Positions 1-10,740 of a stretch of 11,406 bases of DNA are shown here, piece by piece. The notes below the pieces were generated by a model, which was not told the origin of the DNA, made no database searches, and saw only the letters and a list, made by a program, of their open reading frames with translations. The stretch comes from a virus (lineage: Duplodnaviria; Heunggongvirae; Uroviricota; Caudoviricetes), in the IMG/VR virus record IMGVR_UViG_2671181122_000011. One strand, given 5' to 3'. Position 1 is the first letter of the stretch. Every line of letters begins with the position of its first letter. The translations under genes and the position numbers were made by a program.

Positions 1-1461
1 ATGAAAAAATTACTGCATCTTTTTTTCCCGCTCTCGCTGCGGGTACGTTTTCTGTTAGCAACGGCAGCAGTAGTATTGGTGCTTTCGCTTGCCTACGGAA
101 TGGTTGCGCTGATCGGTTATAGCGTCAGTTTCGATAAAACCACGTTTCGGCTGTTACGTGGCGAGAGCAATCTGTTCTATACCCTTGCGAAGTGGGAAAA
201 CAATAAGTTGCATGTCGAGTTACCCGAAAATATCGACAAGCAAAGCCCCACCATGACGCTAATTTATGATGAGAACGGGCAGCTTTTATGGGCGCAACGT
301 GACGTGCCCTGGCTGATGAAGATGATCCAGCCTGACTGGCTGAAATCGAATGGTTTTCATGAAATTGAAGCGGATGTTAACGATACCAGCCTCTTGCTGA
401 GTGGAGATCATTCTATACAGCAACAGTTGCAGGAAGTGCGGGAAGATGATGACGACGCGGAGATGACCCACTCGGTGGCGGTAAACGTCTACCCGGCAAC
501 ATCGCGGATGCCAAAGTTAACCATTGTGGTGGTGGATACCATTCCGGTGGAGCTAAAAAGTTCCTATATGGTCTGGAGCTGGTTTATCTATGTGCTCTCA
601 GCCAATCTGCTGTTAGTGATCCCGCTGCTGTGGGTCGCCGCCTGGTGGAGTTTACGCCCCATCGAAGCCCTGGCAAAAGAAGTCCGCGAACTGGAAGAAC
701 ATAACCGCGAATTGCTCAATCCAGCCACAACGCGAGAACTGACCAGTCTGGTACGAAACCTGAACCGACTGTTAAAAAGTGAACGCGAACGTTACGACAA
801 ATATCGTACGACGCTCACCGACCTGACCCATAGTCTGAAAACGCCACTGGCGGTGCTGCAAAGTACGCTGCGTTCTCTGCGTAGTGAGAAGATGAGCGTC
901 AGTGATGCTGAGCCGGTAATGCTGGAGCAAATCAGCCGCATTTCACAGCAAATTGGCTACTACCTGCATCGTGCCAGTATGCGCGGCGGGACATTGCTTA
1001 GCCGCGAGCTGCATCCGGTCGCCCCACTGCTGGACAATCTCACCTCGGCGCTGAACAAAGTGTATCAACGCAAAGGGGTCAATATCTCTCTCGATATTTC
1101 GCCAGAGATCAGCTTTGTCGGTGAGCAGAACGATTTTGTCGAGGTGATGGGCAACGTGCTGGATAATGCCTGTAAATATTGCCTCGAGTTTGTCGAAATA
1201 TCTGCAAGGCAAACAGACGAGCATCTCTATATTGTGGTCGAGGATGATGGCCCCGGTATTCCCTTAAGCAAGCGAGAGGTCATTTTCGACCGTGGTCAAC
1301 GGGTTGATACTTTACGCCCTGGGCAAGGTGTAGGGCTGGCGGTAGCCCGCGAAATCACCGAGCAGTATGAGGGTAAAATCGTCGCCGGAGAGAGCATGCT
1401 GGGCGGTGCGCGGATGGAGGTGATTTTTGGTCGCCAGCATTCTGCGCCGAAAGATGAATAA
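1..1461 (+). CDS. phoQ: Sensor histidine kinase PhoQ (complete, 486 aa)
   Basis: Full-length ORF from ATG at 1 to TAA at 1459-1461. The translation matches E. coli PhoQ along its length as I recall it (N-terminal TM segment, acidic periplasmic patch EDDDDAE, HAMP, H-box [13 protein letters not shown]-box [12 protein letters not shown]). Confidence 0.95.
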
Positions 1462-1970
1462 ATATGTCCTTTTATCACCACAGCAAGGCAACCAATTGAT
1501 TTAATTAAACAACTCACACTGCAAAAAGTGCTAAAAACAGCAAATTGACTACACCATTAACTACACCGTTCGGTGCACTGTATGAAACAACGTTGAACAA
1601 ATAGACACAAGAAATATACAGGCGGGTAATCTTTCCAGGGGGAAGCGCACCAATTCATGAGGGGCGTTAATGTCGATATGGGGATCCCCATAACGGGGCT
1701 ACCAGATTTTTTTTCCGGTTAACTGTTAATCAGGCTGGTGGGCTTTACCTGTTCGGTAGGTGTTATGATTATCGTAATACCTTTCCCCCAATGGGGTAAA
1801 AGCTCCAACCGTAACGATGTTCGTTATGGTTGCCTTGATGGTCTGAGTGGTCATTTTGACCATTCAGCCAATGACCTTAATCAGAATTTTTCGCTAAAAA
1901 ATGACGTTGGCCACGTCATCCGGAAAGCACAAAATCACGTCGATTTTTAATGAACGGTTAAACCGTCTTT

Positions 1971-2010
1971 TTGTCACGGTGTGTCACTGGTTGTCACTCT
2001 CCGTCACGAT
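1971..2010. repeat. Four tandem 10-bp repeats each carrying GTCAC (ttgtcacggt / gtgtcactgg / ttgtcactct / ccgtcacgat)
   Basis: GTCAC recurs at 1973, 1983, 1993 and 2003, an exact 10-bp phasing. A nearby palindrome ATGACG-N7-CGTCAT lies at 1901..1919. Confidence 0.5.
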
Positions 2011-2057
2011 TGAGGTGGTGGACATTCTGCCCGACCGCGCATTTTTGCGCTATCGGG

Positions 2058-2291
2058 AATATCAAACAGTTACCGCGCCGACTTCCTCAAATTGAGGTTT
2101 CCGAAAATATCAGCGGGTTAGCGATTAAGCTGACGAGTAATTAAACTGCGAAAATTTCGTAGTTTGTGACTATCTGAAAGATAGTCGGTTGTTCCGGCCT
2201 CAGCCGTTGGCTGTTTCCGAAAATATCAGTAGGTTAGGCCAAAGCTCAAAAATGAGCTTTGGAACAATATCAACAAGTTACCGCCGTAACC
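2058..2291. repeat. Pair of direct repeats plus hairpins in a noncoding region
   Basis: GTTTCCGAAAATATCAG(C/T)(G/A)GGTTAG occurs at 2097..2120 and 2213..2236. AATATCAA(AC/CA)AGTTACCGC occurs at 2058..2078 and 2264..2284. A perfect hairpin AAAGCTCA-aaaa-TGAGCTTT lies at 2241..2260 and GACTATC-tgaaa-GATAGTC at 2168..2186. Confidence 0.5.
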
Positions 2292-2559
2292 GCTCCGGCT
2301 TCTTCCAGTGGTACGTAATTTTCTCCGTTTCCCGATACAGTGCCACGCGGCGATTGTAGGCCAGCATTTCAAGAACGCGGATCCGTATGTTGCGCATATC
2401 CACATCATTAAGCTGGATACCATCACGGCGCATCACCTCAGCAACAACACGCGCATAATTTTCGGCTGTCACGCTGTCCGGCTGCGTGGCCTGTTCGTCA
2501 GTCTGCTGGCTGATTCCACCAGCACGGCGGATTAATCCCAGTATTTCGGCTTCTGTCAT
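2278..2559 (-). CDS. Hypothetical protein, 93 aa, function unknown
   Basis: ORF with ATG at 2557-2559 and a GGGTG motif just upstream. Its start lies about 30 bp from cos copy A and it is transcribed away from it. I do not recognise the family. Confidence 0.45.
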   Translation of the reverse strand: MTEAEILGLIRRAGGISQQTDEQATQPDSVTAENYARVVAEVMRRDGIQLNDVDMRNIRIRVLEMLAYNRRVALYRETEKITYHWKKPERLRR

Positions 2560-2592
2560 TGTGCACCCATCGTTCTGATTGTCTGGTGTCGT

Positions 2593-8793: not shown

Positions 8794-8847
8794 TGCAGAA
8801 ATAACGAGCAAATGGCATCATTCCTGCTTTTGTCAGGGGGATCTACC

Positions 8848-9402
8848 ATGCTTATTGGCTATGTACGCGTATCAACAAATGACCAGAACACAGATCTACA
8901 ACGTAATGCGCTGAACTGTGCAGGATGCGAGCTGATTTTTGAAGACAAGATAAGCGGTACAAAGTCCGAAAGGCCGGGACTGAAAAAACTGCTCAGGACA
9001 TTATCGGCAGGTGACACGCTGGTGGTCTGGAAACTGGACCGGCTGGGGCGCAGTATGCGGCATCTTGTCGTGCTGGTGGAGGAGTTGCGCGAACGAGGCA
9101 TCAACTTTCGTAGTCTGACGGATTCAATTGATACCAGTACCCCAATGGGGCGCTTTTTCTTTCATGTGATGGGTGCCCTGGCTGAAATGGAGCGTGAACT
9201 GATTGTTGAAAGAACAAAAGCTGGACTGGAAGCTGCTCGCGCACAGGGACGAATTGGTGGACGTCGTCCTAAACTTACACCAGAACAATGGGAACAGGCC
9301 GGACGATTAATTGCATCAGGAGTTCCTCGCCAGAAGGTGGCGATTATCTATGATGTTGGTGTGTCAACTTTGTATAAGAGGTTTCCTGCAGGGGATAAAT
9401 AA
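8848..9402 (+). CDS. pin: Serine DNA invertase Pin (184 aa)
   Basis: MLIGYVRVSTNDQNTDLQRNAL...DTLVVWKLDRLGRSM...GINFRSLTDSIDTS.PMGRFFFHVMGALAEMERELI: resolvase/invertase catalytic domain with C-terminal HTH, closely resembling e14 PinE. RBS GGGGGA; the ORF track's upstream start (8812) is an over-extension. Confidence 0.93.
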   Translation: MLIGYVRVSTNDQNTDLQRNALNCAGCELIFEDKISGTKSERPGLKKLLRTLSAGDTLVVWKLDRLGRSMRHLVVLVEELRERGINFRSLTDSIDTSTPMGRFFFHVMGALAEMERELIVERTKAGLEAARAQGRIGGRRPKLTPEQWEQAGRLIASGVPRQKVAIIYDVGVSTLYKRFPAGDK

Positions 9403-9508
9403 AGTTAAAGACACTTTGTGTACAAAAGAAAGTAAAACAACAGCAACTTGTTGCAATTTTATCAATAAAAGTAGTATTGTCGTGAAAAATTGATTAAAGA
9501 TTAATATT

Positions 9509-10342
9509 ATGCATGTTTTTGATAATAATGGAATTGAACTGAAAGCTGAGTGTTCGATAGGTGAAGAGGATGGTGTTTATGGTCTAATCCTTGAGTCGTG
9601 GGGGCCGGGTGACAGAAACAAAGATTACAATATCGCTCTTGATTATATCATTGAACGGTTGGTTGATTCTGGTGTATCCCAAGTCGTAGTATATCTGGCG
9701 TCATCATCAGTCAGAAAACATATGCATTCTTTGGATGAAAGAAAAATCCATCCTGGTGAATATTTTACTTTGATTGGTAATAGCCCCCGCGAGATACGCT
9801 TGAAGATGTGTGGTTATCAGGCTTATTTTAGTCGTACGGGGAGAAAGGAAATTCCTTCCGGCAATAGAACGAAACGAATATTGATAAATGTTCCAGGTAT
9901 TTATAGTGACAGTTTTTGGGCGTCTATAATACGTGGAGAACTATCAGAGCTTTCACAGCCTACAGATGATGAATCGCTTCTGAATATGAGGGTTAGTAAA
10001 TTAATTAAGAAAACGTTGGGTCAACCCGAGGGCTCCAGGAAACCAGTTGAGGTAGAAAGACTACAAAAAGTTTATGTCCGAGACCCGATGGTAAAAGCTT
10101 GGATTTTACAGCAAAGTAAAGGTATATGTGAAAACTGTGGTAAAAATGCTCCGTTTTATTTAAATGATGGAAACCCATATTTGGAAGTGCATCATGTAAT
10201 TCCCCTGTCTTCAGGTGGTGCTGATACAACAGATAACTGTGTTGCCCTTTGTCCGAATTGTCATAGAGAATTGCACTATAGTAAAAATGCAAAAGAACTA
10301 ATCGAGATGCTTTACGTTAATATAAACCGATTACAGAAATAA
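9509..10342 (+). CDS. mcrA: McrA, HNH-type restriction endonuclease for modified cytosine DNA (277 aa)
   Basis: 277-aa ORF matching e14 McrA as I recall it, with a C-terminal HNH/zinc motif (CENCG...HHVIPLSSGG...CVALCPNCH). Low-GC composition typical of mcrA. Confidence 0.93.
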   Translation: MHVFDNNGIELKAECSIGEEDGVYGLILESWGPGDRNKDYNIALDYIIERLVDSGVSQVVVYLASSSVRKHMHSLDERKIHPGEYFTLIGNSPREIRLKMCGYQAYFSRTGRKEIPSGNRTKRILINVPGIYSDSFWASIIRGELSELSQPTDDESLLNMRVSKLIKKTLGQPEGSRKPVEVERLQKVYVRDPMVKAWILQQSKGICENCGKNAPFYLNDGNPYLEVHHVIPLSSGGADTTDNCVALCPNCHRELHYSKNAKELIEMLYVNINRLQK

Positions 10343-10568
10343 AATTGTTTATTAAAGTCACATTTAAGACGTAATACCCTACAGGGTAAAAATTTTCTCT
10401 GATCTTAACTTCTGCAAATGTTAACTGCTATTTTTATGCTAAAAATGGTTATCAAAACTCAAAAACACATGTTTATAATCAATGAGTTATAGAAATGCTA
10501 AGGGCTAATGAGTTATATGCAAATTAGTAAAATTATGTTGCTATCTCAAATAGTTACGATTTAGTCAT

Positions 10569-10740
10569 CTAACTAATGCTGCGCCATATGGGCTGGACTG
10601 AAGCCGCAGACCTGATTGTTAAAGGTATGGAAGGCGCAATCAACGCCAAGACCGTAACCTATGACTTCGAACGTCTGATGGAAGGCGCTAAACTGCTGAA
10701 ATGTTCAGAGTTTGGTGACGCGATCATCAAAAATATGTAA
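10569..10740 (+). pseudogene. icdC: icd 3' fragment (icdC-type remnant marking an icd-site attR)
   Basis: Translates to [54 protein letters not shown], the C-terminus of isocitrate dehydrogenase, with no upstream coding continuity. Confidence 0.85.

Follow-up and report, generated by a model that had tools for sequence, protein, structure and literature searches.

How does phoQ come to be followed by phage genes and then by the right end of an e14-type prophage, and is the order in which these are written real? The window, by which we mean the whole 11,406-bp stretch of DNA analyzed, carries phoQ, pin, mcrA and icdC on the plus strand (1-1461 to 10576-10740) and, after phoQ, phage-type genes on the minus strand. 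A preliminary description of this DNA had noted the shared direction of the four genes, the passage of the phoQ 3' end straight into phage DNA with no roxA, and an orientation differing from that of K-12, and all three points hold: the island begins at 1470, roxA is absent, and native genomes such as GF131 have phoQ and pin on opposite strands. The same description had envisaged one mobile element with an e14 module at its end. Instead, our alignments revealed two elements, since homology to the island that lies between phoQ and roxA ends at 8765 and e14 homology begins at 8767. Judged from its sequence, the window brings together two familiar elements that are not related to each other, a satellite island on the phoQ side and the e14 right end (Table 1), and everything in it except the join at 8766 is ordinary.

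Table 1. Features of the 11,406-bp window
Feature	Coordinates	Strand	Basis
phoQ, complete (486 aa)	1-1461	+	ORF; annotated phoQ in matching genomes
att core AAATATGTCC, left junction of the island, overlapping the phoQ stop codon	1460-1469		Comparison with empty site
PICI-like phage satellite, right ~7.3 kb (right two-thirds)	1470-8765	-	Homology and gene content
36-nt repeat	1543-1578		Also beside the integrase gene of intact islands; 91.7% identity between ends
Lambda-type cos-like sequence, arm 1 of inverted repeat around terS	2593-2669		Similarity
Small terminase subunit, Nu1 type	2816-3358	-	PF07471; phrog_57 at 3e-53
cos-like arm 2, inverted	3459-3534		Inverted repeat around terS
137-aa protein, like C-terminal part of head maturation proteases	3564-3977	-	phrog_1999; phrog_53 at 6e-9
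Head decoration protein	3990-4325	-	PF02924; phrog_49
Major capsid protein, lambda gpE type	4338-5393	-	PF03864; phrog_29 at 4e-106
PerC-family regulator	6202-6474	-	Pfam match
SSB	6485-6895	-	Pfam match and annotation in relatives
repA helicase gene, frameshifted	7344-8743	-	PF13481 (RepA-family helicase); phrog_2850
Join between island and e14 DNA	8766		A in the window, N in public records
e14-type prophage right end	8767-10791		pix site, pin, mcrA, icdC
pixR, Pin crossover site, TTCTCCCAAACC AA CGTTTATGAAAA	8767-8793		Inverted-repeat arms; repeat begins at 8767
pin (pinE), serine DNA invertase	8848-9402	+	Annotated pinE; PF00239, PF02796
mcrA, 5-methylcytosine-specific HNH endonuclease	9509-10342	+	PF01844; annotation
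icdC, duplicated icd 3' end, marking the e14 right junction	10576-10791	+	94.8% identical to icd 3' end
ycgX (DUF1398), chromosomal flank	11002-11406	-	Homology and annotation

The segment from 1462 to 2300 had been singled out as a suspect join. Comparison with an empty site (locus L007), which aligns with the window through 1469, defined the edge of the island, and the 10-mer at that edge recurs in intact islands at the end facing roxA. We found the identical phoQ-island junction in 598 of the 5,426 complete E. coli genomes that formed our comparison set, with roxA at the opposite end of the island. The core repeat and this frequency together identify 1462-2300 as a normal site-specific attachment junction, and the odd join lies at 8766 instead. 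The insertion is a common one, already documented, and leaves phoQ intact. Because PhoQ is complete and identical to a widespread allele, found by exact-protein look-up in 32,716 blocks of the collection, we conclude that phoQ itself is unaffected by anything unusual in this DNA. The suggestion that foreign promoters and terminators had been placed beside phoQ was not borne out, as their counts near the gene were no higher than in shuffled sequence.

Intact relatives of the island measure 11.2 kb from phoQ to roxA (11,212 bp from core to core in the O55:H7 copy), and the island DNA of the window is 99% identical to the O55:H7/O157 island and 99.99% identical to loci L004 and L005. Several features mark it as PICI-like: the intact relatives have the 10-bp core as a direct repeat at a fixed site with a tyrosine integrase at one end; they have a replication module of their own, with a RepA helicase or a D5_N primase; and the gene lists of the island and its relatives, at ~11 kb, contain no tail or lysis genes. 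In the window, the replication gene is a pseudogene, in which a 1-nt deletion near 7884 leaves ORFs of 296 and 162 aa, and the integrase half of the island, which occupies the roxA end in intact L001 and L004, is missing. The 36-nt repeats at both island ends may be arm-type integrase binding sites, and the 137-aa protein is probably scaffold-like. The first cos-like arm is 80-85% identical to cos regions of lambda-like phages, suggesting a lambda-type helper phage. The island encodes a major capsid protein and a small terminase, as expected of a cf-PICI. However, we found no portal, complete head maturation protease, head-tail connectors, HNH protein or large terminase in the window or the intact relatives, and for this reason we did not file it as a cf-PICI; in cf-PICIs, of which EcCIEDL933 is the prototype, portal, protease, connectors, HNH and large terminase are all encoded (bioRxiv 10.1101/2022.09.08.507074).

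The other element is identified as an e14 right end by its pix site, Pin, McrA and duplicated icd 3' end, adjoining ycgX. The pixR arms are as in the e14 of GF131, the same site occurs across all e14-like loci, and it gave the top score in a position-weight scan. The icdC ORF (10576-10740) is annotated as a partial dehydrogenase, and iraM is absent from the flank beside ycgX in the window. Native e14-like loci have the invertible P segment, which contains tail-fibre and tfa genes and runs from pixL to pixR, to the left of pixR, whereas the window has island DNA there.

The difficulty is thus confined to a single base. The window is the same as contig CYEM01000008.1 of GCA_001283345.2 across 11,406 bases except one, at 8766, where the public record has an N, the sole N in 20.9 kb of that contig. 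The A in the window differs from every natural continuation (C, T or G), and we take it to be a stand-in for the N. Matches reaching 8764 were considered as an explanation of this A and rejected as BLAST extension through a mismatch. A sister assembly, GCA_001283985.1, has the identical island end (8765) followed by a single N, and continues at a different e14 coordinate, which lies 877 bp deeper, at the P-segment centre, and has no pix site. Both public assemblies therefore have an N at the join, and neither contains a sequence-resolved novel junction. The island-e14 join was present in none of the 5,426 complete genomes, compared to 598 with the phoQ-island junction; a resolved junction had zero matches among species-representative genomes; and metagenome contigs yielded only native islands with T at 8766. 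A reciprocal product, predicted as an in-frame DUF4222-tail-fibre fusion of ~247 aa, was absent among 349 homologues, in which the partial matches to the fusion miss its N-terminus and not its C-terminus.

Both sides of the join end at points where an assembler would meet ambiguity. On the e14 side, the first base, 8767, is also the first of the pix inverted repeat, at its inner edge, and 8766 is the first base that distinguishes the two orientations of the P segment (G in one, C in the other). Other drafts with the same McrA allele (L024-L026) have contig breaks inside the P segment or next to it. Among islands, position 8766 varies between C and T (T, not C, in 11 metagenome contigs) and is also the first base at which RepA-type islands depart from D5-primase-type islands, after 144 identical bases. 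In L005, the closest independently assembled relative (99.99% identical over 1-8765), the island continues normally past 8765 into DUF4222.

The N, the exact coincidence of both ends with ambiguity points, the lack of any finished genome with the join and the disagreement of the sister assembly lead us to interpret 8766 as a scaffold adjacency rather than read-through sequence, and a misjoin of contig ends in a short-read draft is probably what the window records. The draft scaffold, of 211 kb, would have put one contig end next to another, separated by one N. The e14 contig would have stopped at the inner pix-repeat edge, where the two P-segment orientations diverge, and the island contig at a base differing between island types resident in the same genome. 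A greedy read-pair scaffolder may then have made the join, attaching the ~53-kb phoQ-side piece by its wrong end or across missing sequence. For one short-read pipeline of the SSPACE/GapFiller type, whose style these records fit, joins are reported to rest on as few as five read pairs, taken solely from non-proper-pair reads, and 4-10 misassemblies per test genome are reported as well (PMC5320598). A chimeric contig, which the preliminary description had contemplated at 1462-2300, is thus plausible at 8766 and not at the place proposed. We also considered whether the join arose when contigs were ordered along a reference, and rejected this on logical grounds, as the native orientation would then be expected.

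Besides the A at 8766, two further points do not sit easily with a misjoin. In three assemblies of the lineage, GCA_001283345.2, GCA_001283985.1 and a third (proteins CTR58759.1, CTX21984.1 and CTX56586.1), the repA end of the island is linked to the pin/P region, each time with the two oriented alike, which indicates a shared cause that could be real adjacency, and read-pair scaffolders need some linking pairs before they join ends. Moreover, k-1 bases of overrun are expected when a de Bruijn contig ends at a convergent repeat; the island contig end has no such overrun, and our account of the stop at 8765 is incomplete to that extent.

These points bear on the alternative of a real ~53-kb inversion that would take in the right part of the island, the chromosomal stretch phoQ-phoP-purB to icd, and the e14-type prophage body, which we regard as possible and clearly less likely than a misjoin. 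Since phoQ and pin are on opposite strands in native genomes, the arrangement as written needs the phoQ-to-icd block to be flipped, and the strand arrangement demands exactly such an event. Its favour is also strengthened by the linkage of the two regions in three assemblies, by the size of the phoQ-side scaffold piece (53.2 or 54.7 kb, vs. ~50 kb predicted for the distance between the island end and the P segment if the prophage resembles that of GF131), and by the situation in O157, where an icd prophage lies ~9 kb from the satellite island. On the other hand, the break has neither inverted homologous sequences that could mediate an inversion nor a quasi-pix site, the e14 coordinate reached differs between the two assemblies, an N would not be expected where a fixed, unique junction is assembled, each apparent breakpoint falls to the base on an ambiguity point, and neither a finished genome with the join nor the reciprocal fusion product was found. 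Such an inversion would be present in this clone or in a subpopulation of the cultures; the true junctions would lie in unplaced sequence, and the order and orientation of the scaffold would be right, although the junction itself would not. The stricter claim, that the join is real DNA and that a ~53-kb block from the repA end to the e14 invertible segment was flipped, splitting both elements, we consider improbable. The preliminary description had offered a phoQ-to-icd inversion and, alternatively, a second, related element beside phoQ. The strand logic of the first stands, while the event itself is possible, the join being a single N at 8766; the second element exists, but it is an unrelated satellite island and not a relative of e14. 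We detected no DNA similarity between the left part of the island and e14-like prophages, and homologous recombination between the two was rejected because they share no DNA.

It is very improbable that Pin recombined pixR with a quasi-site in the island. Din-family invertases act on quasi-sites at low frequency, as with the Cin quasi-sites, the join abuts a 26-bp pix site beside an intact pin, and the intact island has at the break a 10-bp palindrome, AACCATGGTT, resembling the inner core of Din sites. However, the central dinucleotide is where strand exchange by serine invertases takes place, and a Pin product should therefore hold an island-derived left half-site, and the window contains no hybrid site; it has the complete e14 pix site and one more base of the repeat. 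The island site scored 2.6, ranking 21st in 17 kb, compared to 28-32 for true pix sites, and the partner coordinate in the sister assembly lacks a pix site. A Pin-mediated origin is contradicted by the sequence at the junction. Least credible of all is a single composite element, in which a satellite island would have acquired the pin-mcrA module and would carry it along when it moves. The bare contiguity of the window is the only argument for it; against it stand the facts that pin-mcrA-icdC-ycgX make up the right junction of e14 with the chromosome, which is fixed, that the island in the window has lost its integrase half and has repA as a pseudogene, and that none of the related islands retrieved contains pin or mcrA.

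If the join were real, it would represent a strain-specific inversion that turns phoPQ, purB and icd around with respect to the replication axis and disables both the phage satellite and e14, which would be of modest interest for studies of genome plasticity. The island coordinate 8765/8766, at the boundary of the DUF4222 and rep modules, would then have joined the e14 P region at two different points, depending on the sister isolate, which would suggest that the boundary is a recombination hot spot in these satellites. On the present evidence, the locus serves as a caution that a one-N join between an invertible segment and a repeated satellite module can mimic a rearrangement in a draft scaffold.

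In its single N between contig ends at repeat or heterogeneity boundaries, its conflicting partners in sister assemblies and its zero support from finished genomes, the join is like misjoins of the SSPACE/GapFiller type (PMC5320598), a pipeline that we liken to these records by style only. The e14 portion is like e14 of E. coli K-12, with 8767-10791 being 99.6% identical to the e14-type pinE-mcrA-icd end and having the same pix site and flank, and is unlike it in having neither the P segment nor any of the prophage body to the left of pixR. In E. coli O157:H7, a 10.4-kb prophage-like element is listed as lying between roxA and phoQ (PMC8190617), and the island shares its insertion site and is ~99% identical in DNA to the copies in O157:H7 and O55:H7 genomes; those copies are complete and end at roxA, whereas the island in the window stops at 8765. 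Although it differs from cf-PICIs in not encoding the complete head and packaging set, and the copy in the window is in addition truncated and frameshifted in repA, the island resembles E. coli PICIs as an integrase-bearing element of ~11 kb whose replication gene encodes a RepA helicase (in relatives, a D5 primase), and, like E. coli PICIs including cf-PICIs, it has its own small terminase, capsid and decoration genes together with lambda-like cos sequences of the helper type.

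The gene positions in the preliminary description proved correct by ORFs and family matches (see the table), whereas its single mobile element is instead two known ones: homology to the phoQ-integrated island stops at 8765, a point that falls within the 3' end of a DUF4222 gene and lies 22 bp upstream of the repA start codon, and homology to e14, the icd-integrated prophage, starts at 8767. Its strand logic also stands. Native genomes such as GF131 carry pin and phoQ in opposite orientation, separated by the prophage body, icd and purB, so the order in the window requires the segment between the two joined points to be inverted.

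Features of the window, with island genes listed in order from the phoQ side
Feature	Position	Strand	Remark
phoQ	1-1461	+	Complete ORF
Left 10-bp core	1460-1469		Overlaps phoQ stop codon
Island genes	~1470 to 8765	-	Next seven rows, 93-aa gene to repA
93-aa gene		-	First after phoQ
Small terminase		-	Nu1-type
137-aa protein		-	Weakly similar to C-terminal part of head proteases
Head decoration protein		-	
Major capsid protein		-	Lambda gpE-type
Several small ORFs, PerC-family regulator, SSB		-	
repA, RepA-family helicase	7344-8743	-	296- and 162-aa ORFs; last before 8766
Replaced segment	1868-2265		Just inside phoQ-side end
25-nt direct repeats	2097-2121, 2213-2237		
Inverted cos-like copies	2593-2669, 3459-3534		Either side of small-terminase gene
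30-nt hairpin with T run	3533-3562, 5806-5835, 6170-6199	-	Between island gene blocks
26-bp Pin crossover site, pin, mcrA, duplicated icd 3' end	From 8767	+	
iraM and ymgK absent	10745-10791		
ycgX	After icd duplicate	-	

The PhoQ product is an exact, very widespread sequence, and phoQ is usually followed directly by roxA. The att site emerged from comparing the window with an empty site (L007) and with an intact island at its roxA end (metagenome contig L004): two copies of a 10-bp core, AAATATGTCC, bracket the island, and 36-nt repeats lie near both island ends. The O55:H7 island measures 11,212 bp core to core and has a tyrosine integrase at the end adjoining roxA. The phoQ-island junction was present in 598 of 5,426 complete E. 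coli genomes (at least 80% of a 461-nt probe length matched), and a published list for O157:H7 outbreak isolates includes an element of 10,436 bp situated between roxA and phoQ (PMC8190617). Given the shared core, this frequency and that listing, the passage from phoQ into phage DNA without roxA, previously taken as unusual, is a normal left attachment junction, with roxA at the island's far end. Within the island, the replaced segment, which holds the direct repeats, spans ~400 nt vs. 183 nt in the O55:H7/O157 island.

The 8766 join was absent from all 5,426 complete E. coli genomes searched. Searching for exact matches to the 296-aa RepA fragment returned nine contigs, one of which (GCA_001283345.2 CYEM01000008.1, 211 kb) has the window's arrangement and is identical at 11,405 of 11,406 positions, the sole difference being an N at 8766, that record's only N in 20.9 kb. 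By shortening the flanks, we found a sister assembly (GCA_001283985.1 CXZF01000007.1) in which island end 8765 meets the middle of the e14 invertible (P) segment with a single N between them, in the order pin - pixR - Sv' - tfa - N - repA. A third contig resembles CYEM01000008.1, and the protein accessions of all three are ENA-style and belong to a single submission series. The join responsible for the unusual orientation is therefore not sequence-resolved; the suspected chimerism falls away at 1462-2300, an ordinary att junction, but a misjoin is plausible at 8766, where the public record has the N.

Both contig ends at the N lie where assembly would be expected to stop. On the e14 side, the pix inverted repeat starts with 8767, and the next base inward, 8766, is G in one P-segment orientation and C in the other; in other drafts that share the McrA allele, contigs stop within or next to the P segment, and E. 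coli carries the tfa genes found at the sister assembly's partner coordinate as multi-copy mosaics. On the island side, 8766 is the first base separating RepA-type from D5-primase-type islands after 144 identical bases, and in 11 metagenome contigs of RepA-type islands (L053-L063) it is T instead of C, with identical flanks. This polymorphism is natural among RepA-type islands and gives Val/Ile in the DUF4222 protein. Another contig, L024 (GCA_009932635.1), opens at 1-100 with an inverted copy of pixR-pin-proximal sequence. This copy is a fold-back artefact created during assembly of the invertible segment and illustrates how the region misleads short-read assemblers.

We consider an unresolved or false scaffold join the best reading, and a reasonably probable one: a scaffolder would have set two contig ends side by side across one N, at expected stop points. 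From the style of the records, we infer that the assemblies came from a published pipeline that makes greedy SSPACE/GapFiller joins on as few as five read pairs and takes only reads that did not map as proper pairs, with 4-10 misassemblies per test genome (PMC5320598). The main rival, a real ~53-kb inversion with hidden junctions, seems rather unlikely to us, although the two regions are linked in one and the same orientation in three assemblies and a read-pair scaffolder needs linking pairs. Computed from ranges, the phoQ-side scaffold piece measures 53.2 and 54.7 kb in the two assemblies, near the ~50 kb that a GF131-like prophage would give between island end and P segment; this length is compatible both with a real inversion whose limits lie in unassemblable sequence and with a dangling piece joined by its wrong end. 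Against the inversion, its breakpoints would coincide to the base with ambiguous positions on both sides in two assemblies, a remarkable accident for a real breakpoint and expected for contig ends. Moreover, we detected no DNA shared between the island's left part and e14-like prophages, and the predicted reciprocal-junction protein, DUF4222 in frame with a tail-fibre C-terminus, was found in none of 349 homologues. A Pin-made junction should carry a hybrid crossover site, yet the window retains the e14 site in full. At the break, the island sequence scored 2.6 (rank 21st) on a position-weight matrix built from the pix sites of this analysis together with hix and gix sites, vs. 28-32 for true pix sites.

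Apart from a 1-nt deletion near 7884, which splits the gene, the window's repA is identical to the intact O55:H7 gene. Since L004, L005, L006 and L028 carry the same lesion, it marks an island lineage, probably replication-defective. In the metagenome contigs L004 and L028 and in L005 (GCA_000704845.1 JNRU01000025.1), with the frameshifted repA, the sequence runs on normally from 8765 into DUF4222. L005, an independently assembled E. coli and the closest relative, is 99.99% identical to the window across 1-8765. Its left half belongs to the nap/ccm-site type, an indication that more than one type of island circulates in the lineage. In a comparison of L005 1-4400 with L004 and L041, the left half has a different integrase (413 aa, 99.6% identical to nap/ccm-site islands) and an ASH-family gene; the right half is of the phoQ-side type, and the switch falls within a 144-bp block identical between island types. 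Either islands recombined with each other, which would entail a large chromosomal rearrangement, or the hybrid is a chimera assembled through that block. In the e14 right flank, K-12-like genomes have iraM and ymgK between the icd fragment and ycgX; here both are absent, and the flanks overlap by 47 nt in alignments. Because L015, L016 and L026 also lack both genes, their absence is a lineage trait.

Only the right two-thirds of the island lies in the window. Related islands, which occupy several other chromosomal sites, share the layout integrase - small genes - DUF4222 - replication gene (RepA helicase or D5 primase) - SSB - capsid - decoration - 137 aa - small terminase - 93 aa. The inverted ~77-nt cos-like copies are of lambda type and 85-96% complementary; one arm matches the cos regions of lambda-like phages at 80-85% identity, and both also occur in O55:H7 islands. 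The GC-rich hairpins (plus strand, AAAAAAGCCGGATTTCTCCGGC) look like candidate intrinsic terminators. Based on the layout of its relatives, the lambda-like cos sequences and the lack of tail or lysis genes in the island, we regard it as a putative PICI-like phage satellite. The described cf-PICI family encodes portal, protease, connectors, HNH and large terminase (bioRxiv 10.1101/2022.09.08.507074); none of these was found in the window or in intact relatives, which places the island outside that family.
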